Shown here piece after piece: positions 3,351 through 31,554 of a DNA stretch of 64,000 nt. A program made the translations under genes and the position numbers. The stretch comes from Verrucomicrobiota bacterium (lineage in GTDB: Bacteria > Verrucomicrobiota > Verrucomicrobiia > Opitutales > Coraliomargaritaceae): positions 39,588 through 103,587 of the forward strand of contig JBCBZJ010000010.1 of assembly GCA_039815375.1 (NCBI GenBank), in the 5' to 3' direction. How positions within the stretch are numbered: the first letter of the stretch is position 1; each line of letters opens with the position of its first letter. The notes beneath the pieces are model-generated. The model worked only from the letters and a program-made list of their open reading frames with translations, searched no databases and was not told the origin of the DNA.

Positions 3351-3362
3351 GACAAGTCTCAA

Positions 3363-4973: not shown

Positions 4974-4982
4974 CAGGCAGGG

Positions 4983-5465: not shown

Positions 5466-5927
5466 ATGCGCAACATCCGAACAGCTGCCCGCGCCCTCGT
5501 CATCTTCAAGGGCAAGCTTCTCACAATAAAGATGCAAGACAGCTCAGGCATTTTTTATATCCTCCCCGGAGGTGGCCAGCGCCATGGAGAGACCCTTCGG
5601 GAAGGCCTCATGAGGGAGTGTCTGGAGGAGATCGGAACGAATGTCGAAATCGGCGAACTATTATACGTCAGAGAATATATTGGTAAGAACCACGAATTTA
5701 AAAATGCGCACCATACTTTTCATCAAGTCGAGAACGTCTTCCGTTGCACCCTCCCAAACCCAGATGACATCGGCCCGGGCAGTGAAGAGGATAAAAAACA
5801 AATTGGTGTCGAGTGGATCCCCCTCGAAGAACTGAAAGATAAACGCTTTCTCCCGGAAGTCATTAAACCCTTCTTCCGAGCTGGCGATTTTGACGCGGGA
5901 ACCCACTATCTCGGAGATGTCAATTGA
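5466..5927 (+). CDS. NUDIX hydrolase
   Basis: Nudix box [26 protein letters not shown] at 5466. Confidence 0.88.
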
Positions 5928-9108: not shown

Positions 9109-9363
9109 CTGCCATGCAATTGTCGCTGAGTAAGAAGTTACAAATCATGATGAGTGAATGTGTGAGTGCAATTTCTGATAATGTCAGATTGTCCTTCCTG
9201 AACTTTAGTCGGGTAGGCTGCAGTCTAAGCCTCCAGACAAGCCGATATCTCGACGTAGCTTCCGTGGACACTCGCCCTACTCTATAACATTGATCGAAAT
9301 TGAACCCGGAGTTTGATGACAGTGTTCATTCACCACGCACCCATCACCCATTAGTTATTATCC

Positions 9364-15339: not shown

Positions 15340-17666
15340 TCTTGCGGGTAGAATAGAATTCTATCGTGAACAAGCAGTGTTAAATCCAACTTCCCATCGC
15401 CCGTAAACTCCTCAATTATAATCTGTCTAGGCTCGAGCTTCGCACCAGTGCGCCCTCGGTAGTGCATGTTTTGCTCAAAGACCTGCCAAAACATCCGACT
15501 ACTCCACCCTTCCTCGCCATGCGACAGGATGTCGACCACATGCTGGCTTCCATCGACAACAGCTAGCTCGAGCTTTCCATCACCGTCGAAATCTTCACCC
15601 ACAACATGGCTATAATGAATGTCTTCCAAGTCTGTCTCATAGGTTTGCCGGACAATCCATGAGCGCACCTTATCACGGCCACTGAAAAACCAGAAGCGGT
15701 CCTCGCCTGCAAAGATATAAGCTGGCTCGATTTTTTCGTTTCGTCCCGGAATCACCCTCCAATCAATCAAGTCGATTTGGCCAACATCAATCGCTTTTTC
15801 GTAGCGAAAGACACCGTCTTCATTACGTTTCAAGAACTGCATCTCACCATCTTCTCCAACATAGAGTGTGACGCCGGTTAAGTTCGGCCCCTCGCTCATG
15901 GGAATGACTGCATGAACAACATCTTTGCCTCGGCGCGCATTGAACTGATCCACCATTTCAAGCTGTCCGTCGGAAAACCTAAAAGCTCTGGCGAAACCCT
16001 GCAATGCCGCGACAAGCTCATTAGTCTGATCGGCATCAACGTCAAAAATCGATATCTGCGCTGGCTCAACACCTTTCAAGAGGCTCTCCCGTATACTGGA
16101 CTTGTTTGCAACAGAAATGAGATCAAAGCCATTATCAGAGTCAGGAGCATACAAAACCGGTGCCTCCCTTGGAATAAAGAGCATAAGACCGGGTCTGGTT
16201 CCGCCAAAAATATCGACGACCTTGAGTGCCCCGGGCTTCCGCCGGACGCCATCGATTGGAGTTTCAAAAAGCAAATCCCATGATGATAAAGGATCTTCTC
16301 GAACAGATGGAGCCGCTAGAATGAGCTGATAACCACCTTTTTCGTTTTCATAGACCAAGACGAGCTCGTCGAGTCCATCACCATCCATATCATATGCTTG
16401 AGAACAAATTGGACTTCCGGCAACGACCTTCAGCTGCTTCGGAAATGATAAACGCCCGCTTCCATCAAGCCGACTTAGACCGATCGTCTTTTCTTCCTCA
16501 CTGATGACAATCAATGCCTCCTCAGCACCTTCAAAAAAACGACCCATACTAAGAGACGAAATGAGCGAGAAGGACGGGAAAGCATTCGAGAACTGATAGC
16601 GACCATCCTTCTTGGAAAAAAGTAAGAGCTCCGCTTCAGCAGGATTAGCGACAACCAAATCGACCTCATCATCACGATTGACATCGCCAAAGGCATAGCT
16701 CGCCGACTCGCGAACTTTTTGGAAGATGGGATAGATTTCAGGGGCACCTTGGAGAACCGCAGGCACGTTTCGATCCGCATCGGACTCCTCTAAGGATATA
16801 AACTCAAGCGTGCCACTTCTGGAATCGACGACCGTAAGCGTTCCTACCTCCTTGGCAGAATCAGGCAGTGGTTTAACAATTCGAGCCGGCCGTTCCATCA
16901 CATGTCGGCTTTCTGGCCCAAAAGCCCCACTCGGGAGTTGTTCTCTCATCGCAAGAACCTGTTTACCATCCGTGCTCAAATAGAGCAAATCAAGCAACCC
17001 GTCTCCGGTCGCATCCGTAATCACTAAATTGAATGGATTTTCTCCTGTGATATAGAGGACTTCAGGTTCGCCCAGGCCCTCCTCCCCGTCCTGCGAAAAA
17101 ATCCGAATTGCATCGGCTGACACAACCACCAACTCATCCAAGCCATCACCGTCCAAATCAGAAACATTCAAAGTATTGGTCCAACCAAGAGCTTCGAATC
17201 CATCAAACTCACGAACCTCAATCCAATCTCCGCCTTCCGCCTGGTAGCGAACCGTAAGTGGAGCTTCGCGCGCACTATACGCAATATCGACCAAACCATC
17301 TCCATTGAGGTCTCCGACACCTAAATCGAACATGGGAAAGCCAACCGTGATCGACTTGTTCTCGAAGCGAGCATCTTCCAGAACTGGGTCCCAGCGATTG
17401 CGGTTCACGGTTTTCTTGCTGCTTCCGGAATCTTCACCTTCTGGCAATTGATAGAGCAGTTCCACGCGTGCGGCATCGTTATTGATCAAGACAAGATCCC
17501 GTAAACCATCATTGTCGAGGTCCGTTGCAGAAAGCGCACGGGTCGACCAATCCATTTTGAAGACTTCAGGTTCACCAAAGCCGTAGGTCAAAGCGCTTTG
17601 GACCTCTTTGCCATTGAGCATAAGTGGCGCTGCGGCCAGAACAAATAATCGTAAACTCCGGATCAT
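15336..17666 (-). CDS. FG-GAP/VCBS repeat (beta-propeller) exported protein
   Basis: Repeated DxDGDGxxDL Ca-binding motifs; signal-like N-terminus. Confidence 0.85.
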   Translation of the reverse strand: MIRSLRLFVLAAAPLMLNGKEVQSALTYGFGEPEVFKMDWSTRALSATDLDNDGLRDLVLINNDAARVELLYQLPEGEDSGSSKKTVNRNRWDPVLEDARFENKSITVGFPMFDLGVGDLNGDGLVDIAYSAREAPLTVRYQAEGGDWIEVREFDGFEALGWTNTLNVSDLDGDGLDELVVVSADAIRIFSQDGEEGLGEPEVLYITGENPFNLVITDATGDGLLDLLYLSTDGKQVLAMREQLPSGAFGPESRHVMERPARIVKPLPDSAKEVGTLTVVDSRSGTLEFISLEESDADRNVPAVLQGAPEIYPIFQKVRESASYAFGDVNRDDEVDLVVANPAEAELLLFSKKDGRYQFSNAFPSFSLISSLSMGRFFEGAEEALIVISEEEKTIGLSRLDGSGRLSFPKQLKVVAGSPICSQAYDMDGDGLDELVLVYENEKGGYQLILAAPSVREDPLSSWDLLFETPIDGVRRKPGALKVVDIFGGTRPGLMLFIPREAPVLYAPDSDNGFDLISVANKSSIRESLLKGVEPAQISIFDVDADQTNELVAALQGFARAFRFSDGQLEMVDQFNARRGKDVVHAVIPMSEGPNLTGVTLYVGEDGEMQFLKRNEDGVFRYEKAIDVGQIDLIDWRVIPGRNEKIEPAYIFAGEDRFWFFSGRDKVRSWIVRQTYETDLEDIHYSHVVGEDFDGDGKLELAVVDGSQHVVDILSHGEEGWSSRMFWQVFEQNMHYRGRTGAKLEPRQIIIEEFTGDGKLDLTLLVHDRILFYPQE

Positions 17667-19441
17667 TGGGAAACCTCTTTCCTTAGCATAATGGACCGAG
17701 TGTAGAAACCATCCGGCGCCTCGCTTGTTTCTGTTATAAAATGCCAGTCCAATTGCAGATCGGACGGTATCTTGTTTGGATCAAAGGCAAGACCAGTCTG
17801 TGCATACCGGCTCGCATCAACCATCGACGAAAGCAGCGGAAGGATGATCGCTCCAAAGTCGTAGTAGGATCGGGCGACTGCATCGGGCCGTTCAATTCGC
17901 TCAAAAAGAGCCTCTATCTCAGGTAATTGCCAAAAACCCGAATCCTGGGTCTGCATCGCGGTTAACACCTGTTGAACTAATCCTACTCGCCCAATACTGA
18001 AAATGAAATGACCGCGCGTGACAACAAAGCTGACATCCATTACAGGTGCGTCGGGCACACTGGGGTCTTCTGCTCCCGGAATCGTGTGTATCGTTTCACC
18101 TTCATACTCCAAGGTCCTAATTTGCGCACGGGCTCCAGGCATCATGTCTTTCAAAATCTCTACAGCATCAGAAAGTGCCTGCGAATCCTTGATTGAAAAA
18201 ACGAATAACTGCTCGGGCTCGATCATGCTCGAAGCACTCTGAGAATCCCCAGGAAGGAGAGAGAGGGTAACCATCTCGGGGTCGAAGTTATCTAGAATTG
18301 CTGCGCGCATATCCAGACCGCTCTGATTCTTGAAATTCTGGAGATGAATGTCCAGAAGCGGCATCGCACCTGGACTTGCTGTTGATAAAATAAACTCGAG
18401 GCTATCGAGCATTGCGCCCGGGTCAAAACGCGTCACAGCACTGGAAAAGATTTTTTCCGGAACGTAGGGTGCCTTCGGCAATTCACCGTCCGCATAAGCC
18501 ATCAACTTCATGAGGCCCGCCTTTTCTCTGTAAACGACCGAATTGTAGAACATCAGCCCGTTATCGACTAGGTCGAATTCGAAGCTTAGAGCCTGCAGCT
18601 CCTCAAGCGCAAGTGCCGTGTTGAAGCCCTGTGCGCTTACACCGAACATGGCAAGGCTTTGAACGGCCTTTTGCTGGAGCGCTTGATTAAGTGGCGGCAT
18701 CAGGGATTCAAAATTAAGATAGATTGAAAAGTCCCCTCGTCCCGATTCTTCGCGCGCACGTTGATAAGCAGAATTTGAGGCAAGCGAATCATCACTGCCA
18801 ACCTTGATTGCCTCAACAATTGTGCGCATCCGGTCTTCCGGTGTCGCCAAAATGAAAACACCGTCGACGAGAGCATAACCGTCTTCCACATAAGTTTTCT
18901 CACCGTCGAAGGTCTCATCAAAGTAAAGCGTCTCGCCCATGAAAGTCTCTTCTATCATTTCGTGTTCAATGAGCGGGTTAAATTTCTCCTGGGCTTTGGC
19001 ATTCCGCTCAAACTGAACTTGCATAAGCTCGTTCAAGCGCTCTTCGCTGGAACTAAATTCGGCAAGAATCGCAATATCAGGATTGTCGTCCTGCTTCAAA
19101 ATGAGCTCGGGCATATTGTAGATCGCCAGCGAGAATTGGCCCGGCAACAGTTCAAACAGATCCTCCCAAGTCAGGCCAAAATCATTTTTCATGACATCTG
19201 TAAATCCCGGTTCGCCATCCGCCGAGGTAGATTTGATAATCGGCTCGAAGAAGGCCAAGAGCGAATCATCTGCAAGGATTTCTGCAATCGGGTGATCCTG
19301 CCAGGATTCCCGAATTTCGGAAATATCTCTGAGAGTCAAAACCATGTCTGCCTCAGTTTCAATCAATTCAGCAAACGGCGTCGCAGTGAGATTCAGCGTC
19401 AGGCTGAAAAATAGGAAAGAAGTAAATAGCGTTCTAGTCAT
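17663..19441 (-). CDS. Exported hypothetical protein (possibly DUF3352-like)
   Basis: 592-aa acidic ORF with signal peptide; overlaps the next gene by 4 nt. Confidence 0.65.
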   Translation of the reverse strand: MTRTLFTSFLFFSLTLNLTATPFAELIETEADMVLTLRDISEIRESWQDHPIAEILADDSLLAFFEPIIKSTSADGEPGFTDVMKNDFGLTWEDLFELLPGQFSLAIYNMPELILKQDDNPDIAILAEFSSSEERLNELMQVQFERNAKAQEKFNPLIEHEMIEETFMGETLYFDETFDGEKTYVEDGYALVDGVFILATPEDRMRTIVEAIKVGSDDSLASNSAYQRAREESGRGDFSIYLNFESLMPPLNQALQQKAVQSLAMFGVSAQGFNTALALEELQALSFEFDLVDNGLMFYNSVVYREKAGLMKLMAYADGELPKAPYVPEKIFSSAVTRFDPGAMLDSLEFILSTASPGAMPLLDIHLQNFKNQSGLDMRAAILDNFDPEMVTLSLLPGDSQSASSMIEPEQLFVFSIKDSQALSDAVEILKDMMPGARAQIRTLEYEGETIHTIPGAEDPSVPDAPVMDVSFVVTRGHFIFSIGRVGLVQQVLTAMQTQDSGFWQLPEIEALFERIERPDAVARSYYDFGAIILPLLSSMVDASRYAQTGLAFDPNKIPSDLQLDWHFITETSEAPDGFYTRSIMLRKEVSQ

Positions 19442-19470
19442 CAGGAAAATAGAAAGGTCAATGATTGAAG

Positions 19471-20397
19471 CTACTCTGAGCCGAGCTTCGGAGGGTTCAA
19501 ATATCGGAAACCTGCATTAGGATTGCGCGGGTCGAAAGCATAGGCTTCCAGATTGTCTAGAAACGACTTAAGTGTCCGGGAAGAGATTGAAAACCCGAGG
19601 CCCTCTGCTCCGACAGCTGCGATCTTCATATTGTTCACACCGACGACTTCACCTTTGAGATTGAAGAGAGGTCCGCCTGAGTTGCCCGGGTTGATTTGGG
19701 TCGTGGTTTGTAAATAGAGTCGACCGCTGATTACGCGATTTGCCACGCTGATGATCCCCTCCGATACGGTTCGGTCCAGACCCAACGGGCTACCAATCGC
19801 AAATACGGTCTGGCCTTCGCGCAAGCCCTCGTCGGCACCGGCAATCGAGACGATTTTCAGAGGCTCACCGACAGCTTCGTCGATCTTCAGCAAAGCCAAA
19901 TCGAGCTCCGCACTCGTCGCAACAATTCGCACATTGTCGTAATTATCTTTCCTTAACTCACGCTCGCCCTCTTTGAAAATAGTAACCGAGATACGATGCT
20001 CTCCGGCGATAACATGATTGTTCGTGACAATATATCCATCCTCGTTGATGACGAATCCGGAGCCCAGCCCGGTTGGTGTCTGGATCAAGGCAACTGCTTC
20101 GCCCAATTGGTCTACCCAATCACGGATCGAACGATCATCCCGCATTGTCGAGGTCTGATAGAGTGAATCGGGGCTTATCGAACTTTCTACGCCCGCGGAA
20201 TCCGCGCTGCGTATCGAAGCGATCAAATCCTTAGGCACCTCAACTACTTCAAAACCCAGGTCGAGGTAGTAACTATCTGCCCGCTCAATCACCACCTCAC
20301 CTCGAATTGCAGCACCATTCTTCAATTCGATCGATTGGAATCCGTGAAGGCCCGTGCAGATGCCTAAAACGAGGCAGAGAAATTTAAAATTCAGCAT
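19471..20397 (-). CDS. Trypsin-like (S1C/HtrA-type) serine protease without PDZ domain
   Basis: GSGF, TNNHVI, DLALLKI, INPGNSGGPL catalytic triad; signal peptide; ATG at 20397. Confidence 0.88.
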   Translation of the reverse strand: MLNFKFLCLVLGICTGLHGFQSIELKNGAAIRGEVVIERADSYYLDLGFEVVEVPKDLIASIRSADSAGVESSISPDSLYQTSTMRDDRSIRDWVDQLGEAVALIQTPTGLGSGFVINEDGYIVTNNHVIAGEHRISVTIFKEGERELRKDNYDNVRIVATSAELDLALLKIDEAVGEPLKIVSIAGADEGLREGQTVFAIGSPLGLDRTVSEGIISVANRVISGRLYLQTTTQINPGNSGGPLFNLKGEVVGVNNMKIAAVGAEGLGFSISSRTLKSFLDNLEAYAFDPRNPNAGFRYLNPPKLGSE

Positions 20398-20527
20398 GAA
20401 ACGGAAAGAAAACCAAAAAGCCCGATCAGGCCAACAAAAAGCCACATTTAGGCGCTACCGTCCAGAGGTAAGCAGCGAGATCAGAATCAAAGAGTTCTCA
20501 AGCCAGCGTCTCGCGCTTCACGAAAAA

Positions 20528-21262
20528 CTAGGACTGCGGCATTTCGAAGTAAAAACTAAGCACACCCGGGTTCACCAGAATCGAATCAATCCGGACAATA
20601 GAAACAGTTTCTCCCCCGATTCGATTTTCAATCTCGTGCGCAAAAGGATAGCCTTTTACATCCCTGTAGTCTCGATAAATGGTCTGGAACTCGGCAACGC
20701 CCTCTTCATTCAATTGATCTACTTGCAACACATGCGAGTTGCGAACATCAAGAAAGTAGCGGCTTAATACGCTTTCTGCTTCAGTAATTTCCAAAACATA
20801 ACTTTCGCGCCCACCAACCCATGAATGCCCACTCAGCGTAATTCTGTTCTCAGGCTTCTCTAGGTGGCGGCATAAAGGGCCTTCAAATCTCGCCTCACGC
20901 TTAATCGCTTTGAGCTGATCTCCGGAGAGCGATTCGACGAACGTTTCCTCACCGTTACTGGTCTGAAGCCAACCATCCTCGCCATTGTAGCCTGTTACGA
21001 AAGTCACTTCTCCTTTTTCTAATCGGTAGCGAATCGAAGAAGGCCTTTTTTTACGGACAAGGAAAGGATACTCTATCCCATCCTGAATCTGGACCCCTTG
21101 GAAGGTAACTGCGGTCAATTTGTTGGCCTCGCGTAAATCTCCATAAGTGTCCGTATAACGCTTTAGAATCTTTTGAATGATGAATGCATCACTACTGTCC
21201 TGGGCACAAAGCTGTATGCCGCAGAAAACAAAGAGACAGGCTGTCAGAAATAGACGAAACAC
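20528..21262 (-). CDS. Exported protein, outer-membrane lipoprotein-sorting (LolA-like fold) family
   Basis: Signal peptide; GYNGEDGW, YRDYRDVKGYPF and terminal FEMP patterns. Confidence 0.6.
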   Translation of the reverse strand: MFRLFLTACLFVFCGIQLCAQDSSDAFIIQKILKRYTDTYGDLREANKLTAVTFQGVQIQDGIEYPFLVRKKRPSSIRYRLEKGEVTFVTGYNGEDGWLQTSNGEETFVESLSGDQLKAIKREARFEGPLCRHLEKPENRITLSGHSWVGGRESYVLEITEAESVLSRYFLDVRNSHVLQVDQLNEEGVAEFQTIYRDYRDVKGYPFAHEIENRIGGETVSIVRIDSILVNPGVLSFYFEMPQS

Positions 21263-22466: not shown

Positions 22467-23132
22467 TTAATCGTCGTCCGTAACTGTCCAGTTTAACCCG
22501 CCTTTGTTTTTAATAATACCCTTGTCCAGAGCAAATCGCACCAAACCGGCCTCATCGCTTATATTAAGCTTTTTCATTGCATTGTGTCTATGACGACGGA
22601 CCGTGAATGCGCTGATATCCAGGCGTTCTGCGATCTCATCCTTATCCTGACCCATTACCACTGCTCGTAAGACCTGAAATTCTCTGTCCGAGAGAATTTT
22701 ATAGTAGGCATCCGGATTCTCCCAAACCTCGAGAATCTTCTTTTGCACATTCGGCGAGTAATAGACGTGGCCGGCAGAGACTTCGTTGTAAGCCTCGAAA
22801 AGCACCTCGAGAGACATCTCACTCTTGTCCACGAAACCTAGCACACCACTGCACTGGATTTCGCGGACGGTATAATCATCACATTCACTGGACAAAGCCA
22901 GTATACGAATTTCAGGAACAGCCGAAAGCATTCGTTTGGCCAAGGCAAGACCGTCAAGCTTAGGCAACATTAGATCCAGAACGACAAAGTCAAACGGTTC
23001 GCCTGCAAAGGTTTTCCATGCTTGTTCGCCATCTCCAGCACCTTTTACGGCATCAAACTCAAACTCTCTCAGAGCGACACTCTCCAAAATTTCGCGAACA
23101 ATTTCTTCGTCTTCAACAATTAAAGCCTTCAT
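22467..23132 (-). CDS. LuxR/NarL-family response regulator (REC plus HTH)
   Basis: LIVEDE, VLDLMLPKLDG (phospho-Asp), LSDREFQVL...IAERLDISAFTVRRHRHNAMKKL. Confidence 0.92.
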   Translation of the reverse strand: MKALIVEDEEIVREILESVALREFEFDAVKGAGDGEQAWKTFAGEPFDFVVLDLMLPKLDGLALAKRMLSAVPEIRILALSSECDDYTVREIQCSGVLGFVDKSEMSLEVLFEAYNEVSAGHVYYSPNVQKKILEVWENPDAYYKILSDREFQVLRAVVMGQDKDEIAERLDISAFTVRRHRHNAMKKLNISDEAGLVRFALDKGIIKNKGGLNWTVTDDD

Positions 23133-23193
23133 TGAGCTTAAAAATTGATCACCAATTCACAAATCGCCAGAATTTTAATTGATTAAATTTCGT

Positions 23194-23209
23194 TAGTCCT
23201 AAAAGACTA
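23194..23209. promoter_or_regulatory. Palindromic operator TAGTC-CTAAAA-GACTA (site 1 of 3)
   Basis: Perfect 5-6-5 inverted repeat between the divergent response regulator and TonB receptor genes. Confidence 0.65.
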
Positions 23210-23220
23210 TCGTTCGGTTC

Positions 23221-26004
23221 ATGGTTTTAAGGAAGCAATCTGCTGTCACCCTACTCTTGAGTATTCTCTATTCTGGTATCGGAGCTGCGGATACACTACC
23301 GAGCGATGAACTGCCAATCATAGAACTGGAAGATTACATTGTGACCGGCTCAAGATTTTCTGCCGAAACATCAGCTATCCAGCTTCCTGTTGATTTCATC
23401 AGTGCGGATTCTCTGAGCTTATGGAGAGAAGAAACCGCAATTAGCGCTCTTCGTGCCGAAAGTTATAATATAGGTAGTGCAAATACGGAAAATGACAGTA
23501 ACGGCGGTGATGGTTCGGCCTCAGCCAACCTCCGTGGCCTCGGCACGCTTTCGACCTTGACCCTGATCAATGGGCGCCGTGCCGGTGGGAACAGCGCGTT
23601 CCTTTACAACCCTGGCGGTTTCTCTGACCTTAATCTGATCCCTGTCGCAGCAATTAGGGAAGTCGAGATTCTGACAGAAGGGACTTCCGTCGCCTATGGC
23701 TCCGATGCGGTCGCCGGAACCGTTAACATAATGCTGCACGACGACTACGTGGGCACTCGGATAGAGGCCGGCTACAGCGATACGACCGACGGAGACGCAT
23801 CGGAGAAGACTTTCTCCTTTCTCACAGGGCAGGAGTTAAACGAAAAAACGCATCTTGTCCTTCTCGGTAGCTGGTATCAGCGCAATGCGATTTACGCACG
23901 TGATCGCGACATCTCGGAAGATACAGACCGCCGGGCGCAAGGTGGGCAGAACCAAGGCAGCCCATTTTTCCCAGGCCGAATTTCGGTTTCGGGTGTAGAA
24001 TATGTTCTTCCGAGCAACATCGACGCACCAACAAACCTGGGGCAGTATGAATTGTTCGATCCCCTCAATGATCTGTATAATTTCAGCGAATTTGCTCCGG
24101 CCGTTCCAGAGGTTGAGCGAAAGAGCTTAATGGCCAACATCACTCATCAACTCACGGACAACCTCGAGCTTTGGGGTGAAGGACTTTTCACGACTTCCAC
24201 TTTCTACAATGCCTTGGCACCTGCACCGTGGACAGCCGCGCCTAACGGATTCGAAAATCCAGGTGTCTTTTCGAGCATTGTGAATACTCCCAGCCCACAT
24301 ATTCCAGCGGGCATTAACCCGGCTGATATAGAGCGCATCGCCTATCGCAGCTTTGAGCTCGGCAACCTTGCCCCGGAACAGGAAAAAACCGCCTTGCGCG
24401 GGCTAATCGGACTGCGCGGAACCTTTTCTGACTGGAACTGGGAAACAGCTCTCCTCTACTCCGAAGTCGAAACAGAATGGCAATGGAGTGGCGTTACCGA
24501 CGCACGCATCCTCTCCGATCTTATCGAAACCGGCGAGTTCAACCCCTTTGCCCAGGCATTCGCAACCGGAACGATTCCTTCTGGTCCACTGGCAGGCCAA
24601 ACTTATGACAATGCGGCTGCTCTAGAGCAAGCCGAGGCAGATCCGGTAGACCTTTTTAAGGAGCAGTTCTGGAGCTATGACATCTCTGCCAGCCGATCTT
24701 TTCTCGAACTTCCTGCAGGCGAGCTCGAAACAGCTTTCGGCTTCGAGTATCGCGACGAGAGCATCGAGGCTGATATTGACGAGATCTTTGTGAACAGCAA
24801 CAACCTTGGAGGACCTGTCCGAGAATCCTACGGCGGAGACCGTAAGGTTTACGCTGGCTTTCTTGAAAGCCTGATCCCCATTTACCGCAAAGGTTCGCAA
24901 TCTCTGGACCTGAATGCTTCCATCCGCTACGAGGAGTATAGAGACAGCTCTGATGACAGCTCGGTTACAGGAAACCAATACAACGCATTCGTCTACAAGC
25001 TCGGCACGAACTTCAAGGCATCCGAAGCGCTAAAGTTCCGGCTATCTTACGGGACAGCTTTCCGAGCTCCAACCCTAACGGAGAGCTATGGAGGTAGCGT
25101 AATCGCAAATCCGATCTACAATGATCCTCTGGGCTTCACGGCGGACTCGGCTCGGATAAACACATTAATCAGCAGTAATTCGGATCTCGATCCGGAAGAA
25201 TCAACAACTGTCAACGCAGGATTCGTCTTTGCTCCTGATCCTGCCAAGGGATGGCGCCTTGAGATCGAATATTACAAAATCAAAACACAGGATGGTATCG
25301 TTAACGGAGCTCAATTCCTGGTAGACCAGAATGCAGCAGGGCAGCCGAACGGCGTCACACCGGGAACATTGGCTCCCACTGCACCAAATGCCGGACAAAT
25401 CATTCGGAACCCTGTGACAGGCCAACTTCTCGTGGTATTCTCCGAGTTCTTCAACGTAGCTGAAATTGAAACCGACGGCATCGATTACACATTAAGCTAT
25501 TTCCAACCCACGAGTGAAGGCAACTGGGAAGCCTCGATCAGGATAAGCCAGGTTCTATCCTACGATGTAACGGCGGCCCCGGGGGCAGCGACACAATCCT
25601 ACCTCGGGGACTTCATTGACCCGGCGGCTCCGGGTGGAAACATCGTCGGGCGCGGCTCGATTCCGCGCTATAAAGGCTACGCCCGCTTCGTCTGGAATCA
25701 TCGCAACCTGACCTTGGGCGCCACTTATAACTATATTCACTCCCTCGATGATAACACTGCATTCACCACAACGGGGCAACAGCGCAAAATCGACTCATGG
25801 CAAAGCCTCGATCTAGTGGCCCGTTACACTTGGCCGGAGAGTGCCCTGGATTGGCTCGATGGAGTCACACTTACCTTAAGTGCTGAAAATGTGACCGACG
25901 AAGCACCGCCTTTTGCTGCGGGCGCCTTTGCTGACGGCTACGACCGCTCGCTCTATAGCCTGGAAGGTCGAAGAATGGGGATCACACTCGCCAAAGATTT
26001 CTAA
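23221..26004 (+). CDS. TonB-dependent receptor
   Basis: Signal peptide, TonB box-like YIVTGSR, plug NLRGLG..TLTLINGRR, YGSDAVAGTVNI, C-terminal Phe. Confidence 0.93.
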   Translation: MVLRKQSAVTLLLSILYSGIGAADTLPSDELPIIELEDYIVTGSRFSAETSAIQLPVDFISADSLSLWREETAISALRAESYNIGSANTENDSNGGDGSASANLRGLGTLSTLTLINGRRAGGNSAFLYNPGGFSDLNLIPVAAIREVEILTEGTSVAYGSDAVAGTVNIMLHDDYVGTRIEAGYSDTTDGDASEKTFSFLTGQELNEKTHLVLLGSWYQRNAIYARDRDISEDTDRRAQGGQNQGSPFFPGRISVSGVEYVLPSNIDAPTNLGQYELFDPLNDLYNFSEFAPAVPEVERKSLMANITHQLTDNLELWGEGLFTTSTFYNALAPAPWTAAPNGFENPGVFSSIVNTPSPHIPAGINPADIERIAYRSFELGNLAPEQEKTALRGLIGLRGTFSDWNWETALLYSEVETEWQWSGVTDARILSDLIETGEFNPFAQAFATGTIPSGPLAGQTYDNAAALEQAEADPVDLFKEQFWSYDISASRSFLELPAGELETAFGFEYRDESIEADIDEIFVNSNNLGGPVRESYGGDRKVYAGFLESLIPIYRKGSQSLDLNASIRYEEYRDSSDDSSVTGNQYNAFVYKLGTNFKASEALKFRLSYGTAFRAPTLTESYGGSVIANPIYNDPLGFTADSARINTLISSNSDLDPEESTTVNAGFVFAPDPAKGWRLEIEYYKIKTQDGIVNGAQFLVDQNAAGQPNGVTPGTLAPTAPNAGQIIRNPVTGQLLVVFSEFFNVAEIETDGIDYTLSYFQPTSEGNWEASIRISQVLSYDVTAAPGAATQSYLGDFIDPAAPGGNIVGRGSIPRYKGYARFVWNHRNLTLGATYNYIHSLDDNTAFTTTGQQRKIDSWQSLDLVARYTWPESALDWLDGVTLTLSAENVTDEAPPFAAGAFADGYDRSLYSLEGRRMGITLAKDF

Positions 26005-26014
26005 TCAATATTGC

Positions 26015-26440
26015 CTATACTGGCAACTGAAGGCGCATGCGATTATCGTGGTTAAGCTCTGGGAATAGCTTTCTCAAACGACGGAGGAAGAGCACTGCTC
26101 CTCCAGCCGTATAATCAGGCTTATGGAGGCCCATCTTATCCCAAAGCTGCGAAATTTTCCTTAATTGAAGATTCTCAGAAACAGTCCTTTTAGAGTAAAG
26201 ATGGTTTCCTTGGCGAGGGGTTGCATAGGTGTATGCCTGCCCATCGAGATTAAACTGCACCTTAAATCGGCAGTCCATACCATGGTCGCGGAGCTCGTAA
26301 ATGCGCATCCAGACCCATTCATCGTTTGCGTCCCGAAGCGGGCAGATGGAGAAATCTCCATAGCCAATCTGAATATTGATCTCGCTTATCATTGACATCA
26401 CGAAAGCTACGTTAGCATTTCGGATTTTCAACATGCCCAA
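26015..26440 (-). CDS. Hypothetical protein (true start possibly ATG at 26398 or 26392)
   Basis: Fills the gap downstream of YcaO; no recognised motif; palindrome site 2 lies immediately upstream. Confidence 0.55.
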   Translation of the reverse strand: MGMLKIRNANVAFVMSMISEINIQIGYGDFSICPLRDANDEWVWMRIYELRDHGMDCRFKVQFNLDGQAYTYATPRQGNHLYSKRTVSENLQLRKISQLWDKMGLHKPDYTAGGAVLFLRRLRKLFPELNHDNRMRLQLPV

Positions 26441-26441
26441 A

Positions 26442-26457
26442 TGGTCCTTTTAGACTA
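26442..26457. promoter_or_regulatory. Palindromic operator TGGTC-CTTTTA-GACTA (site 2 of 3)
   Basis: Reverse complement TAGTCTAAAAGGACCA closely matches site 1. Confidence 0.6.
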
Positions 26458-26488
26458 TGTGGCAGCAAAGTAGCATGGACGGACTCTT

Positions 26489-27373
26489 TCACCAAAAGAA
26501 GTAGTCAGCCGCATTACTCAGATAGTCTCTACTCGGTGGTTTAATGATCGTCCGCCAGACGTAGGCGAATTTATCCCACGGGCCACGAACGGCACAATCG
26601 AACAGCAGGTTTAACTCACAGATCGCAGCCTTCGAGTGTTTTTCAAGCCTTTGGTCGAAACAGGCGCAACCCTCATCGCTGGAAAAATACAAAATTCTAC
26701 TTTCAAAAACTCCCAATTCCCCATCGCTGTCGAGGTCTTTACGAATCGCACGAAGAAGGGCCTCGGTTCGCTCGAATTCGATTCTGCTACGCCAAATCGC
26801 TCCTTCGAGGTCCTTTGCAGCCCCAAAGGCATACACACGCCCCTGCTCCGAATCTCTCCAGATCAATACGACGTCATGCTTCGAAAAAGGATTCTCGATC
26901 TGAATCCCTTCTAAGCGATCCGGCAATCCACTCATTTTCCGGTGCCCCAAAAGGCCCTCCCACCAGGACATCAGGCAATGCCGTTCAATCGACTCCGAAA
27001 AAGCTGCTCGCCGAGCCTGCCGGGCAAAGAGACCGGGAAAGGCAGCAAAGCCGTTCGAGCCTCCGTCGATTTGAATGCCACCCGGATTTTCCTCCATACG
27101 TTCTCGGCAATCGTAAACCACCCAACGTTCGATCGCCTCAGAGACCGCCATATGGCAAGCGATTTGAACCGACTCATGCGTGCCTGCCCCATCCGGCACC
27201 GGCGTTTTGGTGTGGGTGCGGACCTTCTTCGTAACCAGCTCATCTATCAGATAAGCACTGGCTTGATAGACTTCGCGCTCGGCCAACCGATACCTCCCAT
27301 ATTCGAGAGTCTTCAGGGGGCCTCCACCCTCCGCCGTAATGTTTGCGTAACGAATAGGTGCGAGGCTAATCAT
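26489..27373 (-). CDS. Short stand-alone YcaO-like protein
   Basis: YcaO ATP-binding signature in order: GAGT..MAVSEAIER, GSNGFAA, SESIERH; ATG at 27373 gives 294 aa. Confidence 0.75.
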   Translation of the reverse strand: MISLAPIRYANITAEGGGPLKTLEYGRYRLAEREVYQASAYLIDELVTKKVRTHTKTPVPDGAGTHESVQIACHMAVSEAIERWVVYDCRERMEENPGGIQIDGGSNGFAAFPGLFARQARRAAFSESIERHCLMSWWEGLLGHRKMSGLPDRLEGIQIENPFSKHDVVLIWRDSEQGRVYAFGAAKDLEGAIWRSRIEFERTEALLRAIRKDLDSDGELGVFESRILYFSSDEGCACFDQRLEKHSKAAICELNLLFDCAVRGPWDKFAYVWRTIIKPPSRDYLSNAADYFFW

Positions 27374-27374
27374 G

Positions 27375-27424
27375 AAAAAAGTGCCCAACCGCCGGGAGGA
27401 TTATATCGACCGGCGATTGGGCAC
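27375..27424 (-). terminator. Intrinsic terminator-like hairpin between peptide gene and YcaO
   Basis: Minus strand GTGCCCAATCGCCGG-N14-CCGGCGGTTGGGCAC followed by TTTTTT, ending just before the YcaO ATG. Confidence 0.7.
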
Positions 27425-27431
27425 AGAGTAA

Positions 27432-27569
27432 TTAAACGGTCATCACAGATGGGAAAGCCGATTTCGACATTTCTGCTTTTTCTCTCGTACCGTCTACACA
27501 GGCGTCAGTGCGCATACTCAACGTGGCAAAGCCAGCATTAAGTAGTAGGGTGCTGATTAGCTTTTTCAT
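27432..27569 (-). CDS. Unannotated 45-aa peptide, candidate RiPP/signal precursor: MKKLISTLLLNAGFATLSMRTDACVDGTREKAEMSKSAFPSVMTV
   Basis: Hand translation ATG(27569) to TAA(27432); shorter than any ORF in the supplied track; signal-like N-terminus; own promoter and downstream hairpin. Confidence 0.7.
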   Translation of the reverse strand: MKKLISTLLLNAGFATLSMRTDACVDGTREKAEMSKSAFPSVMTV

Positions 27570-27611
27570 TTGATTGGTAGTATCAATTAAGTCTCTACTC
27601 GAGACTATGTT

Positions 27612-27640
27612 GTTATACGTCGGGGATCTTTTTCTGTCAA
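27612..27640 (-). promoter_or_regulatory. Near-consensus sigma70 promoter for the peptide gene
   Basis: Minus strand TTGACA (27640-27635), 17 bp spacer, TATAAC (27617-27612). Confidence 0.72.
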
Positions 27641-27650
27641 TTAAGGCAAC

Positions 27651-27666
27651 TGGTCTGAGAAGACTA
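27651..27666. promoter_or_regulatory. Palindromic operator TGGTC-TGAGAA-GACTA (site 3 of 3)
   Basis: Same 5-6-5 motif, 10 bp upstream of the peptide -35 box and just upstream of the likely kinase start. Confidence 0.62.
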
Positions 27667-27681
27667 AGTCCTTACGGCGTT

Positions 27682-30600
27682 ATGCATAGAGAAGAGACCG
27701 TATGTGTTTTGCAGGAAATTGTAATCATACTTTCCAGACTAGTTTTGGCATTCTCGCTTTTGGCTGGCTTCCCAAACAAAGCTGATCCTTCCGACATCGC
27801 AGAACCCTTAGTTAGAAAGTTCTCTCCAATTCAATATGGGGGCGGGACTTCATCGAGAGCCGTGACAGAGGATAAAAGTGGTAACCTCTTCTTTGGGAAC
27901 GAAAAAGGTGTTCTCAAATACGACGGAGCGGCTTGGTCTATTCTGCCTTCTACGGGTGATTCTGTTTTCACGCAAGCCGTTATGGTCGATCACATGAATC
28001 GGATTTGGGCTATGGGCAACGAATCCATCGGCTATTACGAAGCCGGAAAAATGGGCGACTATGTCTACGTTGATATGCTTCCCAGCCTTAAAACCTATTT
28101 CGAGGTAGAGCAACTTGGGCCATTTTGGGAGCTTTTCGCAATGGAGGAAACAATCTACCTAGCTACGAGCTACGCTTTTTTAAGTTGGGATGGTTCCATC
28201 TGGAGCAAGTTTAGTTTCAATACAGAGCGTCGCATTCTACCTTCTGATTCGAAGGGCAAGTTCTACATTCATTCAAGAGGTGAAGGAATATTCCGCTTCG
28301 ACAATGAAGAATGGAAGAAAGTTGCAGGTCCAAATTCACTCTACTGCCGCGGAATTGATGCCATAGTCGAAAAGGAAGATGATGTTTTAACTCTCTTCAC
28401 ATTTTTTCAAGGGACATTGGAAATCGATCTAAAAACTCAAGAAGTAAGAAAGGTCCAAACACCATTTGAAGAGTCCGCACAGGGGAAAATGGTAACAGCA
28501 ATCAATGGAACTGATAGCTCCAGTGTTCTCGCAGGTGTAAGCACGGTAGGTCTCTATTTCATAGACAACCAATATCAACTTAGCGGCTTCGCGGCAGATC
28601 CCAAAAATAACATGTATGACAATTATGCCGAGACTAGTTCGGGCTACTGGGCCACCGCATCGGAAGAACTTTTACAGATTCCCTTCGGAACAGCATTAAG
28701 TCATTATGAAACTGGCGATCGGGTTGATGCAATAACCCGTTTTTCAGATAAAATCGTCTTCGCTGGTCGCTACTATCTCTTTGAGCTGGACCCGAGTAAT
28801 GCGCCGGAAAAGTCTACAGTCCAGCGGAAGCTCGAATTTACAGGCTCTTATACGCTGACAGAAGCAGACAAGCATCTAATCACTGGAGGAACCGAGGACT
28901 GCCTAAAGATAAATTCTGATGGAAGCATTGACCGGATCGAAAGTCCACGTCAGATCCTGTCTTCTTCGCCCAGTCGCCTCTACCCTGAAACAGTCTACGC
29001 TGGTGATTTGCCTTTTGTAAGCCGAATCCGAAAGCAGGCAGATGGTGAATGGCAACTCGTCGATTCCTCGGCAGAGCCGGTAGGCTTCGTTCTGGCACTC
29101 GAAGAGCTACCCGATGGCAGTGTCTTGGCGACGACACAATCCGGACCAGTAAAACGCATATTCTGGCCTGAAAACGGGAGCGGCCCTCCGCGGGTTGAAC
29201 CATTAGGCAAAGAGCAGGGACTCCCGGAAGAATTCGCCTGGTCCTACGTTCTTCATTCTCAGGGACATTATATATTGGTTACCGATCAAGGCGCTTTTCG
29301 ATATGCTTTTGAATTGGAGCGTTTTGAATATGACGATGTTCTCGGAAGCGACCTGGGCCTCAATACTTTTGATCTCGAATACACTGGGCTTGCGAGTGGG
29401 GACGGTTGGCTCCTCTGGCTGCCTGAGAATGAAGTATCCGGCCAACGGCTCGGAGCACTGTCTATCTCAACTGATGGAAGTCTCAACTGGGAACCATGGT
29501 ACATCCCGGCATTGAGTGAGCTTGGGAATGTCGAATCGCTTTACCACGAGGTTTACCAAGGCACTGAGCTGCTCTGGATCGGTGGTCTCGACGCGCTGCA
29601 CCGATACGATCTGGATGCAATGCCCGAAACGCCACCCCGAGACGCCAAAGTAACATCGGTACGGGAGCTAAACTCCGGTGCACTCTTTCAGGGGCCGGCA
29701 GGCAGTGCCCAGCTCGAAATGAACCTGAAGTTTCCCCAAGAGCGTTTGGCATTCAGAGTAACCTCACCACCCAGCCGGACAGAACTGGTTGGTTTCCAGA
29801 CACGATTGCTTGGATTCGAGAAAAACTGGTCCGAAACTACCGAACTCCAGTCCCGGGAATACACCCGAATCAGTGAGGGTAACTACACTTTTGAAGTTAG
29901 AGCAATCGACGAATTCTTGAGAGCAGGTCCAATTGCCAGTTACTCGTTTACCATACTTCCTCCCTGGTATCGCACTGTCTACGCCTATTTATGCTATGTG
30001 CTGATGCTGTTCTTATTCATTCTGGTTGCAGCCAGAATCAGGACCAACCGCCTGCATCGAAAAAATCTAGAGCTGGAGGCTACAGTCGCCGATCGCACCG
30101 AAGAGCTCCAACGCAAAAACGAGCAGCTCCGCCAAGCAAATACTGTAAAGCAAGATTTCCTTGCCAGTATGAGCCACGAAATCCGTAATCCGCTCAATGG
30201 CATTCTCGGTGTCGCACAGCTCCTCCGCCAAGAACAAGTAGGCGGCGCGACCCGAATCTCACACCTCAACGCCTGCGCAACACATCTCCACCAGCTTCTC
30301 GGTCAGGTGCTCGATTTTTCCAGTTTAGAGTCGGGCAAACTTGAAACCCGTCCTAAACCTTTTGATGTAAACGAGCTTATCGAAGAAGCCGTCGGCATGT
30401 ATAGTGCCCTTGCCGAGAAAAAGGCGCTCCAAATTTCCAAAGACTTCAAAGGCAGTGACAATCTCTGGATCGGCGACCCGGTTCTCCTGCGGCAAGTCCT
30501 CATCAACCTGATTTCGAACGCCATTAAATACACGCCATCCGGAGAGGTCCGCGTCCAATTAGAATACGCAGAGGCCAGCGCTAAAGTTGAGGCACGCTTT

Positions 30601-31554
30601 ATCATTGAAGATACCGGACCGGGCATACCTGAAGATAAACGAGAATATATCTTCAAAGATTTTACCCGTCTCAATAAGGCTGGAGAAAGCGAAATCGCCG
30701 GAACAGGCCTGGGGCTTGCCATCGCCTCACAGATGTCGGAGCTGATGCGTGGAAGTTTGACGCTCGACCCAAGCTATCAAGAGGGTGCCCGCTTCGTGCT
30801 GGCACTCCCCTTCGAAGGTGGGGCGAAGATTGTCGAGAAAACCGCCGAAACATTTGCCACGACTCAGCCACTTACCGGTAAGCGTGTGCTGGTCGCAGAT
30901 GATATGGAATTCAACCGCTACATTAGCCGCGAACTGGTGCAGAAACTTGGTGCCGAGGTCGATGAGGCTGAAGATGGTCAAGAAGCCTTAGAAGCGCTAA
31001 ACCGCGATTTCTACGACATTGCGCTCTTGGATATCAACATGCCCAAAATGAATGGAAATCAGGTTGTTCAAGCATTTCTTCGCAAACCGAGCGGAAGGCC
31101 CACATTGTTTGTAGCTCTGACTGCCCACGTCACCGCCTCAATGGAGAAGGCTGCGTTTCAAGCGGGCTTCTCTCACTTTATCGAAAAGCCGCTGGACCCC
31201 GAAGTGCTAATGCAAATCGCTCAAGCCCAGCCCCTGCGTGATAAAAAGGCAGCAGCAGACTTGTTGAGCTATTTGTCGGGAAGCGATTCGAAAGCACAAT
31301 CGAAACTAAAGGATCGCTATCTTCAATCCATGCGCGAACAGATCAAAATGCTGAGTCTGGCACTGGATCATGAAGACCGCTCGGAAGCATCTAAAATCCT
31401 CCATAAGCTTCGCGGTCTCGCAAATCTGAAGCGCAAGAAAGACATGATCGAGATAATGGAGCAACTCGCTGAAACACTTCATTCAGACGAGGACATCCTG
31501 ATCGCGAAAAAGCAATTCGCGAAACTTGGTGAAATCTTCGATTCAGGGAGCTAG
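27682..31554 (+). CDS. Unorthodox hybrid sensor kinase (periplasmic beta-propeller, Y_Y_Y, TM, HisKA, HATPase, REC, Hpt)
   Basis: GVLKYDG propeller repeats, YTRISEGNYTFEVRA, ILPPWYRT, FLASMSHEIRNPLN, LLDINMP, LHKLRG; start uncertain because the track start 27574 overlaps the peptide promoter. Confidence 0.9.
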   Translation: MHREETVCVLQEIVIILSRLVLAFSLLAGFPNKADPSDIAEPLVRKFSPIQYGGGTSSRAVTEDKSGNLFFGNEKGVLKYDGAAWSILPSTGDSVFTQAVMVDHMNRIWAMGNESIGYYEAGKMGDYVYVDMLPSLKTYFEVEQLGPFWELFAMEETIYLATSYAFLSWDGSIWSKFSFNTERRILPSDSKGKFYIHSRGEGIFRFDNEEWKKVAGPNSLYCRGIDAIVEKEDDVLTLFTFFQGTLEIDLKTQEVRKVQTPFEESAQGKMVTAINGTDSSSVLAGVSTVGLYFIDNQYQLSGFAADPKNNMYDNYAETSSGYWATASEELLQIPFGTALSHYETGDRVDAITRFSDKIVFAGRYYLFELDPSNAPEKSTVQRKLEFTGSYTLTEADKHLITGGTEDCLKINSDGSIDRIESPRQILSSSPSRLYPETVYAGDLPFVSRIRKQADGEWQLVDSSAEPVGFVLALEELPDGSVLATTQSGPVKRIFWPENGSGPPRVEPLGKEQGLPEEFAWSYVLHSQGHYILVTDQGAFRYAFELERFEYDDVLGSDLGLNTFDLEYTGLASGDGWLLWLPENEVSGQRLGALSISTDGSLNWEPWYIPALSELGNVESLYHEVYQGTELLWIGGLDALHRYDLDAMPETPPRDAKVTSVRELNSGALFQGPAGSAQLEMNLKFPQERLAFRVTSPPSRTELVGFQTRLLGFEKNWSETTELQSREYTRISEGNYTFEVRAIDEFLRAGPIASYSFTILPPWYRTVYAYLCYVLMLFLFILVAARIRTNRLHRKNLELEATVADRTEELQRKNEQLRQANTVKQDFLASMSHEIRNPLNGILGVAQLLRQEQVGGATRISHLNACATHLHQLLGQVLDFSSLESGKLETRPKPFDVNELIEEAVGMYSALAEKKALQISKDFKGSDNLWIGDPVLLRQVLINLISNAIKYTPSGEVRVQLEYAEASAKVEARFIIEDTGPGIPEDKREYIFKDFTRLNKAGESEIAGTGLGLAIASQMSELMRGSLTLDPSYQEGARFVLALPFEGGAKIVEKTAETFATTQPLTGKRVLVADDMEFNRYISRELVQKLGAEVDEAEDGQEALEALNRDFYDIALLDINMPKMNGNQVVQAFLRKPSGRPTLFVALTAHVTASMEKAAFQAGFSHFIEKPLDPEVLMQIAQAQPLRDKKAAADLLSYLSGSDSKAQSKLKDRYLQSMREQIKMLSLALDHEDRSEASKILHKLRGLANLKRKKDMIEIMEQLAETLHSDEDILIAKKQFAKLGEIFDSGS

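Follow-up and report, generated by a model that had tools for sequence, protein, structure and literature searches.

What keeps a gene for a YcaO-like enzyme and a 45-codon open reading frame (ORF) next to the gene of a large sensor kinase, with a response regulator and a TonB-dependent receptor close by? The question is raised by a locus at positions 22467-31554 of a 64,000-nt stretch of contig JBCBZJ010000010.1, from a marine-type Verrucomicrobiota bacterium of the order Opitutales; we refer to the whole stretch, at its full length, as the window. An initial annotation had described six contiguous genes at this locus: a LuxR/NarL regulator, a TonB-dependent receptor, an unknown protein, a YcaO-like enzyme, a secreted-looking 45-aa peptide and a kinase. 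It had proposed that they form a peptide-signalling circuit. All six genes were found where they had been placed, by the ORF listing and by domain scans. Comparison with related loci supports a conserved unit of four, which encode the peptide, an enzyme of the YcaO type, the hybrid kinase and the LuxR/NarL regulator; in one pair of genomes, the peptide gene and the sensor-coding part of the kinase gene have been exchanged together. We lean towards the view that this unit is a self-contained circuit in which a modified peptide is both produced and sensed.

A four-gene unit is conserved in Opitutales

Relatives of the enzyme were collected by a protein search, which gave 131, and by a scan of species genomes, which gave 321 and from which 80 loci were kept. 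Every source name given among the 131 relatives was verrucomicrobial. The kinase gene was the divergent upstream neighbour of the enzyme gene in 63 of the 65 loci with sufficient flank. Of the 76 loci with 250 nt or more of upstream flank, 63 had a member of the peptide family, described below, immediately upstream of the enzyme gene on the same strand. By BLAST, 44 of the 80 loci, or 33 of the 41 with full flanks, had a relative of the regulator no more than 6.5 kb from the YcaO-like gene, located either beside the 3' end of the kinase gene or behind the enzyme gene. Six more loci, five of them with full flanks, had a diverged 220-aa GerE protein at the regulator's place. The expectation that a peptide, a propeller-type kinase and a LuxR regulator would co-occur with YcaO homologues was thus borne out.

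The two remaining genes, which the initial annotation had counted as parts of the circuit, did not prove to be core members. A TonB receptor gene was adjacent in only 14 of the 80 loci (7 of the 41 with full flanks), namely in the window's close clade and in three others, and there the linkage has been kept despite rearrangements. Since the receptor is found in so few loci, re-import of the peptide cannot be the general mechanism. In locus L008 (around positions 3200-5700) the receptor is split into three ORFs; this may be a pseudogene, or an error of sequencing may be the cause. The 139-aa protein is an orphan, common to the window and L002 only, where its single relative is 38% identical. 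It had no Pfam match at E<=10 and no NCBIfam match, a protein search among 5.8 billion clusters returned only itself, and its Atlas model (pLDDT 0.41) gave no usable look-alike. Peptide and enzyme aside, no gene family other than the kinase, the regulator and the receptor was conserved within 9 kb. An exporter, protease, dehydrogenase or immunity gene, all reported as missing at the outset, was indeed not conserved near the module; a trypsin-like peptidase gene 2 kb off the locus is not part of the conserved neighbourhood.

These counts also bear on the idea that the locus serves nutrition, with a glycan-sensing kinase and TonB-dependent uptake, and that the peptide and YcaO genes are unrelated neighbours carried along. 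Such a locus would account for a Y_Y_Y-type sensor homologous to those of Bacteroides, and for the adjacent receptor gene being preceded by a palindrome that is shared with other parts of the locus. The scarcity of the receptor is hard to reconcile with it, as peptide and enzyme are nearly always present; carbohydrate-active enzymes are not conserved nearby, and the palindromes precede the peptide operon. A nutrient locus is already disfavoured by these comparative data, and we find it hardly credible.

How widely is the module distributed? Among 301 genomes sampled from the order, 44 had it, representing 29 of 118 genera. In a sample of 401 genomes from the phylum, all 31 matches fell within the same order, so that among the genomes sampled the family is restricted to Opitutales. 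The module also varies within the genus of the host: two nearly complete congeneric genomes (G173 and G616) have no YcaO-like gene. In several loci the module is flanked by the same genes as in the window, encoding a methyltransferase and LptF/G, which argues for vertical descent with losses. Its distribution is patchy, but the module is old. Its named cultured carriers among the related loci are Thalassobacterium, Cerasicoccus, Oleiharenicola and Horticoccus, and the signalling question is therefore directly testable.

The enzyme is predicted to be a minimal YcaO

Against the Pfam YcaO model (PF02624) the 294-aa protein scored 21.1 bits, below the cut-off of 25.7, and it matched no NCBIfam model. 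The family member in L063 was barely over the cut-off with 25.9 bits. Pfam YcaO was matched by 22 of 23 relatives at E<=0.01, the best at 9.5e-8, and hhalign against five canonical verrucomicrobial YcaOs gave a probability of 84.5% (E 6.9e-6). A profile search of PDB sequences with the enzyme alignment returned no YcaO, its two matches being at chance level (E ~0.8). The sequence evidence alone is thin; it is the structure that decides the matter.

An AlphaFold2 model built from a 23-sequence alignment (pLDDT 87.9, pTM 0.86) was compared with known structures. Foldseek placed YcaO structures on top, with 33 matches at E<=0.001 and a probability of 1.00 to 6CI7, 4Q84, 6PE3, 6GOS_D, 7U58 and 4V1T. 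With VIA-align, Z was 16.7 for McbD, 15.2 for the YcaO of M. kandleri (Methanopyrus), 14.6 for LynD, 14.0 for the Methanocaldococcus YcaO and 12.2 for the Escherichia coli YcaO. The YcaO matches as a whole (Z 16.7-11.9) extended over 235-265 residues, from model residue 5/20 to 292/299, and the next fold reached a Z of 5.7. In the Atlas, the TM values between the enzyme and YcaO clusters were 0.66-0.73. Two ExxER motifs (E84/E87/R88 and E132/E135/R136) were invariant in all 23 sequences, the second aligning to the canonical motif in a local hhalign and the first in a global one. We take these two Glu-x-x-Glu-Arg-type helices to be the acidic motifs that bind ATP and Mg2+. The fold (Z 12-17), the hhalign result and the relatives thus uphold the YcaO-like identity despite the sub-threshold Pfam score, and the 294-aa protein consists, on the modelled structure, of a shortened YcaO domain and nothing else.

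In the ESM Atlas, the third-nearest entry by language-model features (0.94) was a 283-aa cluster of 137 members from Bdellovibrionota, 20% of which match Pfam YcaO. This hints that mini-YcaOs of a similar type may exist outside Verrucomicrobiota.

Which reaction would such an enzyme catalyse? YcaO products include azolines, amidines and thioamides, and peptide cleavage is possible too (PMC13063428). A Pro-rich extreme C-terminus is reported as a trait of azoline-forming YcaOs (PMC8442711). The tail at the end of the present family's members is aromatic and conserved; Pro-Pro-Ser lies about 14 residues upstream, and there is no Pro-rich terminus. Given this wide range of products and the missing Pro-rich C-terminus, several chemistries are conceivable for the present enzyme. 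No E1-like/RRE partner, TfuA or dehydrogenase was found among the conserved neighbours within 9 kb, and TfuA was absent from the Pfam scans of the window and of the L063 neighbours.

It could be asked whether the substrate is a folded protein, for example the kinase, and the small ORF no substrate at all. Stand-alone YcaOs acting on proteins exist: that of E. coli modifies uL16 and that of methanogens modifies methyl-coenzyme M reductase (PMC13063428). The best Foldseek E-values were those to the methanogen stand-alone enzymes, and a leader-binding partner is not among the conserved neighbours. The top structural Z, however, was to McbD, which is a peptide cyclodehydratase, and a small ORF is conserved directly upstream on the same strand, often 8-25 nt from the enzyme start. 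We regard a protein substrate as very improbable.

The small ORF belongs to a family of candidate precursors

An iterative profile, seeded with the window's 45-aa ORF alone, was run over 31,109 six-frame segments from the loci and the window. It converged on 77 matches (E<1e-3), with a single match anywhere other than upstream of the enzyme gene. We rejected the possibility that the 45-codon ORF had arisen by chance in a divergent promoter, because it is conserved. None of 43 family members had a significant match in Pfam or NCBIfam, only scattered noise being returned. The N-terminal 25-30 residues form a conserved leader, in which a hydrophobic stretch with a near-invariant Gly is followed by a motif of the type Ala-Ala-acidic-x-x-Asp-Pro; the C-terminal core is hypervariable. 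A short gene beside the enzyme gene, a conserved leader and a variable core are the features by which precursors of RiPPs (ribosomally made peptides that undergo post-translational modification) are recognised, and judged by conservation the ORF is a real gene of this type. Tandem precursor genes occur in 11 loci, and some precursors carry the core cassette twice.

Is the peptide exported? The best 12-residue hydropathy of the leader was 1.72 in the window and 1.22-1.89 in its clade, against a median of 2.51 in the other clades. The leaders of most Opitutaceae members combine strong hydrophobicity with Ala-x-Ala-like ends, and for these export by Sec is plausible. For the window's own peptide it would be only marginal.

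The transcript between the peptide and enzyme genes can fold into a hairpin of -31.2 kcal/mol (z -5.4; none of 200 shuffles was as stable). An equivalent hairpin, differing in sequence, was found throughout the close clade (13 of 13 loci); most Opitutaceae have instead a spacing of 8-25 nt between the two genes. A leaky terminator behind the structural gene is common in RiPP operons.

Several variants of the precursor region were seen among the relatives. L003 and L011, from the same named species (Thalassobacterium sedimentorum), represent two module copies whose peptides differ in leader and tail and have a short core motif in common. The module is also present twice in genomes G215, G131, G165, G209, G269 and G300. 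L073 and L080 have divergent candidate precursors that were missed by the peptide profile; these are without Cys and contain an acidic, Pro-rich cassette repeated twice. One clade (L016, L018, L019, L020, L024-L027, L030, L034 and L037) has two different tandem precursors, the first ending in a Pro/Cys motif and the second having no Cys and a Gly- and Asp-rich tail; a GC-rich hairpin lies between the second precursor and the enzyme gene.

Most cores have a Cys beside a Pro. A Cys is found within the last 30 residues of 62 of 75 peptides, and CxxC or CxxxC in 32 of 75. This composition suggests another role for the peptide, that of a regulated effector: a modified peptide in the periplasm or outside the cell, binding metal through its Cys pairs or acting as an antimicrobial. 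The kinase would then sense an unrelated glycan, metal or envelope stress, and in the window's clade the TonB receptor, linked in 14 loci, would import the loaded peptide or the cue. A precedent is given by the bufferins, Cys-containing periplasmic RiPPs with Sec signal peptides (PMC11626156). The window's core and several others have no Cys, however, and the cores are hypervariable where conservation around a metal site would be expected; nor is an exporter or an immunity gene conserved. The sensor of the kinase provides further evidence on this point.

Peptide and sensor have been exchanged together in one pair of loci

The kinase consists of an N-terminal membrane segment, a periplasmic region of some 730 aa with a Y_Y_Y domain at its end, a second membrane segment, HisKA, HATPase and REC domains, and a probable Hpt. 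The Hpt match is weak in Pfam (17.5 bits, cut-off 24.6), and NCBIfam matches of the EvgS/TorS/ArcB type extend through the region. Pfam detected no propeller repeats. Among known structures of periplasmic sensors from Bacteroides hybrid two-component systems, the 800-aa sensor matched 4A2L (E 3.9e-8) and 3V9F (E 0.008). Of the beta-propeller/Y_Y_Y kinase with REC and Hpt described at first, Y_Y_Y and REC are present and the propeller is recovered by homology to 4A2L and 3V9F, with no Pfam propeller repeat and with the Hpt below threshold. By Pfam the kinase has no helix-turn-helix output domain, and the regulator is a separate protein. In L052 (around positions 9100-9750) a segment of about 680 bp that does not align with L068 interrupts the kinase gene in its 5' part.

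The relation between sensor and peptide is seen most clearly in loci L063 and L066. Their enzymes are 100% identical and their kinase cores 99%; the sensors are only 41% identical and the peptides 25-40%. At the DNA level, flanks of 94.9% and 98.5% identity enclose a 2.16-kb block that cannot be aligned. From about codon 640 of the kinase gene, shortly ahead of HisKA, this block extends across the promoter and the peptide gene, and it stops precisely at the ATG of the enzyme gene. Both the sensor and the peptide of L063 are closest to the type found in L077. A metagenome scan for close relatives of the L063 enzyme returned only one close locus, L092 (91%), which carries a cassette of the L066 type; this shows the type to be the native one in the lineage. 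Taken together, the block and the L077-like character of L063 indicate that one recombination event replaced sensor, promoter and peptide and left the enzyme untouched.

The same relation was found across 42 loci. In a partial Mantel test, sensor and peptide similarity were correlated when enzyme and kinase core were accounted for (r = 0.139, p = 0.001). With the sensor accounted for, neither enzyme and peptide (r = 0.034, p = 0.21) nor kinase core and peptide (r = 0.025, p = 0.28) were. Peptide similarity thus appears to follow sensor similarity beyond shared ancestry, which favours a matching of peptide and kinase. Co-exchange and co-variation of sensor and peptide are what a signal-receptor pair predicts, and joint variation of peptide and sensor is the pattern known from the ComQXP and Agr pherotype loci. 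The enzyme gene is nearer to the peptide gene than the sensor-coding region is, yet it does not co-vary with it, and this difference in behaviour raises the odds that peptide and sensor interact.

For the regulated effector introduced above, these results cut both ways. The homology of the sensor to those of the Bacteroides hybrid systems speaks for it, as sensors of this kind are known to bind sugars or glycans and are not known to bind peptides. Against it, peptide and sensor were swapped as a block that excluded the enzyme, and they co-vary; an unrelated cue predicts neither. We consider an effector role unlikely.

A direct contact between peptide and sensor would also be expected if the peptide were an accessory regulator, that is a small protein in or at the membrane which gives feedback to its own kinase on the periplasmic face, like MgrB with PhoQ, and acts within the cell that makes it, without diffusing. 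The strict pairing with the kinase and the co-exchange with the sensor fit any such contact, and the size (45-90 aa), the N-terminal hydrophobic segment and the short Cys-bearing C-terminal part are those of a connector of this type. The Ala-x-Ala-like ends conserved in most members suggest cleavage, however. Repeated cassettes, tandem precursors and a hairpin that would favour an excess of peptide transcript are typical of released products, and we know of no precedent for a connector with a dedicated ATP-dependent enzyme that modifies its backbone. An accessory regulator therefore strikes us as quite improbable.

Palindromes suggest control by the module's own regulator

The initial annotation had also noted one palindrome in three intergenic regions. 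The pattern TAGTC-N6-GACTA, with at most one mismatch, indeed had three matches in the 64-kb window, all of them intergenic and within the locus (Table 1). The first can also be read as a 7-2-7 inverted repeat, the geometry typical of NarL-family dimers. The count by itself is weak evidence, since shuffled windows had a mean of 0.84 matches and 7 of 100 reached three; it is the placement of the palindromes and their conservation in relatives that suggest more than chance. The exact palindrome is found at the equivalent kinase/peptide site in L003, L008 and L050, and a related AAGGACTAG-like box occurs in other close loci and ahead of the orphan gene of L002.

A large subclade of Opitutaceae has a different, perfect 7-2-7 palindrome, mostly at -63 to -66 from the peptide start. 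When up to three mismatches were allowed, 17 of 60 loci had this 16-bp palindrome upstream of the peptide start, and only six matches, looser ones, turned up in the rest of the 1.17 Mb. Perfect 7-2-7 palindromes occurred in 14 of 61 upstream regions and in 2.1% of control windows. The natural reading of these placements is that the regulator of the module drives the peptide operon through the palindromes.

Genome-wide the exact palindrome is not enriched (five sites, against six for a reversed control), and the palindrome alone can therefore not define a regulon. A near-copy of palindrome 1 (14 of 16 bases, extended to 18 bp) lies at contig positions 17700-17715 (L109 1501-1516), about 22 kb before the start of the window. 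It is located in an 825-nt intergenic region, 30 nt upstream of a 230-aa ORF that is followed by two ORFs without a Pfam match, and these ORFs may be a further member of the regulon. In the locus, scans for sigma-70 promoters (7 against 8.1 expected) and for simple terminators (13 against 10.9 expected) were at chance level, the large hairpin being only partly caught by the latter.

A proposed modified-peptide circuit

If the parts are put together, the circuit that we favour would operate as follows. The precursor encoded by the 45-aa gene would consist of a conserved leader at its N-terminus and a variable core at its C-terminus. In the cytoplasm, the 294-aa minimal YcaO would use ATP to activate a backbone amide in the core; we would guess first at an azoline, formed at the conserved Pro-(Ser/Thr/Cys), with a thioamide or an amidine as alternatives. 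By means of the hydrophobic leader the peptide would cross the inner membrane. The hybrid kinase and the NarL-type regulator would control the peptide-enzyme operon via palindromes of the 7-2-7 type, and in the window strain this control may extend to the genes of kinase and regulator themselves, of the TonB receptor and of the orphan protein. The kinase's periplasmic sensor, matched to the peptide, would probably detect it, and this last step is the most conjectural of all.

The peptide-signalling interpretation made at the start is in this way retained in part. The conserved four-gene unit, the positioned palindromes and the exchange of sensor with peptide speak for it, and the TonB receptor and the 139-aa protein are no longer among its core components. 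Several observations weigh against it. Thirteen of the 76 loci had no peptide match at E<1e-3, although weaker matches and visibly similar small ORFs are included among them. The window's own core, which has Pro-Ser and Thr, is without Cys, unlike most of the family, and its leader is only weakly to moderately hydrophobic. The candidate leaders in L047, L059 and L067 contain charged residues, unlike Sec signals, and in these few lineages export by Sec may therefore not apply. The enzyme has neither the C-terminus of the azoline formers nor a partner that could bind the leader, and the sensor is of the 4A2L/3V9F-like type of Bacteroides hybrid systems, a class known for sensing sugars. Finally, the swap is a single clean case, the Mantel effect is small and the loci are related, and as the genes for sensor and peptide are adjacent they could have been transferred together by linkage alone.

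In its most specific form the proposal would be that the YcaO-modified, leader-exported peptide is, in Opitutales, the cognate ligand of a hybrid kinase whose periplasmic sensor is Bacteroides-like, and that a swappable cassette of peptide, promoter and sensor gives rise to pherotypes, with the enzyme being generic. This is possible, and we put it forward tentatively.

Layout of the locus

The coordinates of the features are given in Table 1. Two of the starts call for comment: the enzyme is likely to begin at the ATG rather than at the TTG that opens its ORF, as it does in homologues, and for the kinase the ATG is the more likely start, as it precedes the first hydrophobic segment. In the host genome (3.56 Mb, 99.9% complete) the YcaO-like gene occurs once, Y_Y_Y proteins number only two, and no canonical YcaO was found. 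To the left of the locus (window 17663-21262) there are proteins of 592 and 244 aa without Pfam or NCBIfam match. The trypsin-like peptidase gene mentioned above lies at 19471-20445; only weak, distant matches to it were found, in L028, L065 and L076.

Table 1. Features of the locus, in window coordinates.
Feature	Position	Strand	Remarks
NarL/LuxR-type response regulator, 221 aa	22467..23132	-	REC and GerE helix-turn-helix; Pfam Response_reg 1.3e-16, GerE 4.5e-16
Palindrome 1, exact TAGTC-N6-GACTA	23194..23209		Divergent intergenic region of regulator and TonB receptor; 11 nt before receptor ATG
TonB-dependent receptor, 927 aa	23221..26004	+	Lineage-specific accessory; Pfam Plug and TonB_dep_Rec_b-barrel
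Orphan protein, 139 aa	26015..26434 (likely; ORF opens TTG 26440)	-	Outside the conserved module
Palindrome 2, one mismatch	26442..26457		7 nt upstream of the ATG of the 139-aa gene
Enzyme, predicted minimal stand-alone YcaO fold, 294 aa	26489..27373 (ORF opens TTG 27388)	-	Structure, profile and relatives
Terminator-like hairpin	27375..27424	-	15-bp stem 27381-27424, U6 tract 27375-27380; between peptide stop and enzyme start
Precursor peptide gene, 45 aa	27432..27569	-	Conserved hydrophobic leader, variable C-terminal core
Palindrome 3, one mismatch	27651..27666		Divergent promoter region of kinase and peptide; 15 nt before kinase ATG, about 82 nt before peptide ATG
Hybrid sensor kinase, 1290 aa from ATG	27682..31554 (ORF opens TTG 27574)	+	Pfam, NCBIfam and PDB matches

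Comparison with known systems

To our knowledge, dedicated peptide-pheromone circuits are known almost only from Gram-positive bacteria. The locus presents a four-part logic like that of a pheromone system in a phylum with an outer membrane, and joins it to amide activation by a YcaO. A literature search, which did not cover subscription-only papers, returned no description of a YcaO-peptide-kinase module or of a YcaO in Opitutales. If our proposal is true, it would add a peptide pheromone system proper to a diderm phylum, a class of peptide ligands to sensors of the Y_Y_Y type, and to the RiPPs a family exported by its own leader. The enzyme would be the smallest partner-free, peptide-acting YcaO known to us, and the natural cassette, in which the specificity of peptide and sensor can be swapped, would be useful for building orthogonal signalling channels.

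In function, the closest resemblance is to ComQXPA of Bacillus, which has the same four parts: a precursor, a dedicated modifying enzyme, a membrane histidine kinase and a LuxR/NarL-type regulator. In ComQXPA, polymorphism affects the peptide gene and that end of the kinase gene which encodes the sensor, and the rest is conserved, much as in the L063/L066 cassette. The enzyme here is a YcaO instead of an isoprenyl transferase, and the swap has not affected it. As receptor there is a hybrid kinase, with a periplasmic sensor of about 730 aa, of the 4A2L type, and with a phosphorelay; here, in contrast to ComQXPA, sensing of the peptide is presumed. The host, furthermore, has an outer membrane. 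AgrBDCA of staphylococci likewise combines a peptide, a processing enzyme, a kinase and a regulator in one divergent locus; that locus is autoregulated, as we propose for the present one, and its specificity groups are set by joint variation of peptide and sensor. It differs in the chemistry of the enzyme, in its LytTR regulator, in its polytopic membrane sensor, where the present module has a large soluble periplasmic domain, and in peptides without a Sec-type leader.

The hybrid sensors of Bacteroides represented by 4A2L and 3V9F are homologous to the periplasmic sensor of the kinase, similar in length, and also end in Y_Y_Y. Those systems are single polypeptides with a fused AraC-type output domain, respond to glycan fragments and belong to polysaccharide utilisation loci. 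In the present module the output would pass by phosphorelay to a NarL-type regulator that is a protein of its own, and it is peptide and YcaO genes that are conserved next to the kinase gene; no SusD-like gene was conserved near the module.

In its enzyme, the module shares with McbD (of the microcin B17 synthetase), the cyanobactin heterocyclases LynD/TruD and the bottromycin YcaOs a fold that extends over the whole protein, as well as the ExxER motifs. Like RiPP YcaOs in general, it has a short leader-core precursor encoded next to it. It differs from them in being about 294 aa long, where they have 360-780 aa, in having no conserved E1-like/RRE partner, dehydrogenase, protease or exporter and no Pro-rich C-terminus, in its sub-threshold Pfam score (for the window copy), and in being coupled to a two-component system. 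Freedom from partners is also a feature of the bottromycin YcaOs (PMC8442711), and of the stand-alone YcaOs that thioamidate proteins (the methyl-coenzyme M reductase enzyme and E. coli YcaO). Among structures of the latter group, 6CI7, 4Q84 and 6PE3 gave the best Foldseek E-values. Their substrates, however, are folded proteins, with no small ORF nearby (PMC13063428), whereas the present module includes a precursor gene.

The bufferins are alike in having RiPP-type precursors with Cys and with an N-terminal signal, which is of the Sec type in bufferins and Sec-like in most Opitutaceae members here, in their diderm hosts and in the lack of a dedicated exporter (PMC11626156). According to the same text they bind copper and are modified by an MNIO together with a DUF2063 protein (DUF692/DUF2063), in place of a YcaO. 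Their precursors are longer and are small folded proteins, and a dedicated kinase-regulator pair is not described in the passages of that paper drawn on here. Another difference is that Cys is not universal in the present peptide family, and the window genes and the scanned L063 neighbours include neither MNIO nor DUF2063.

By its components the module thus falls outside the azoline synthetase complexes, the TfuA system, the bufferins and the polysaccharide utilisation loci. By analogy, its nearest counterparts appear to be different ones for its different parts: ComQXPA and AgrBDCA for the function, partner-free YcaOs for the enzyme, bufferins for the export of the precursor, and the Bacteroides hybrid sensors for the receptor.

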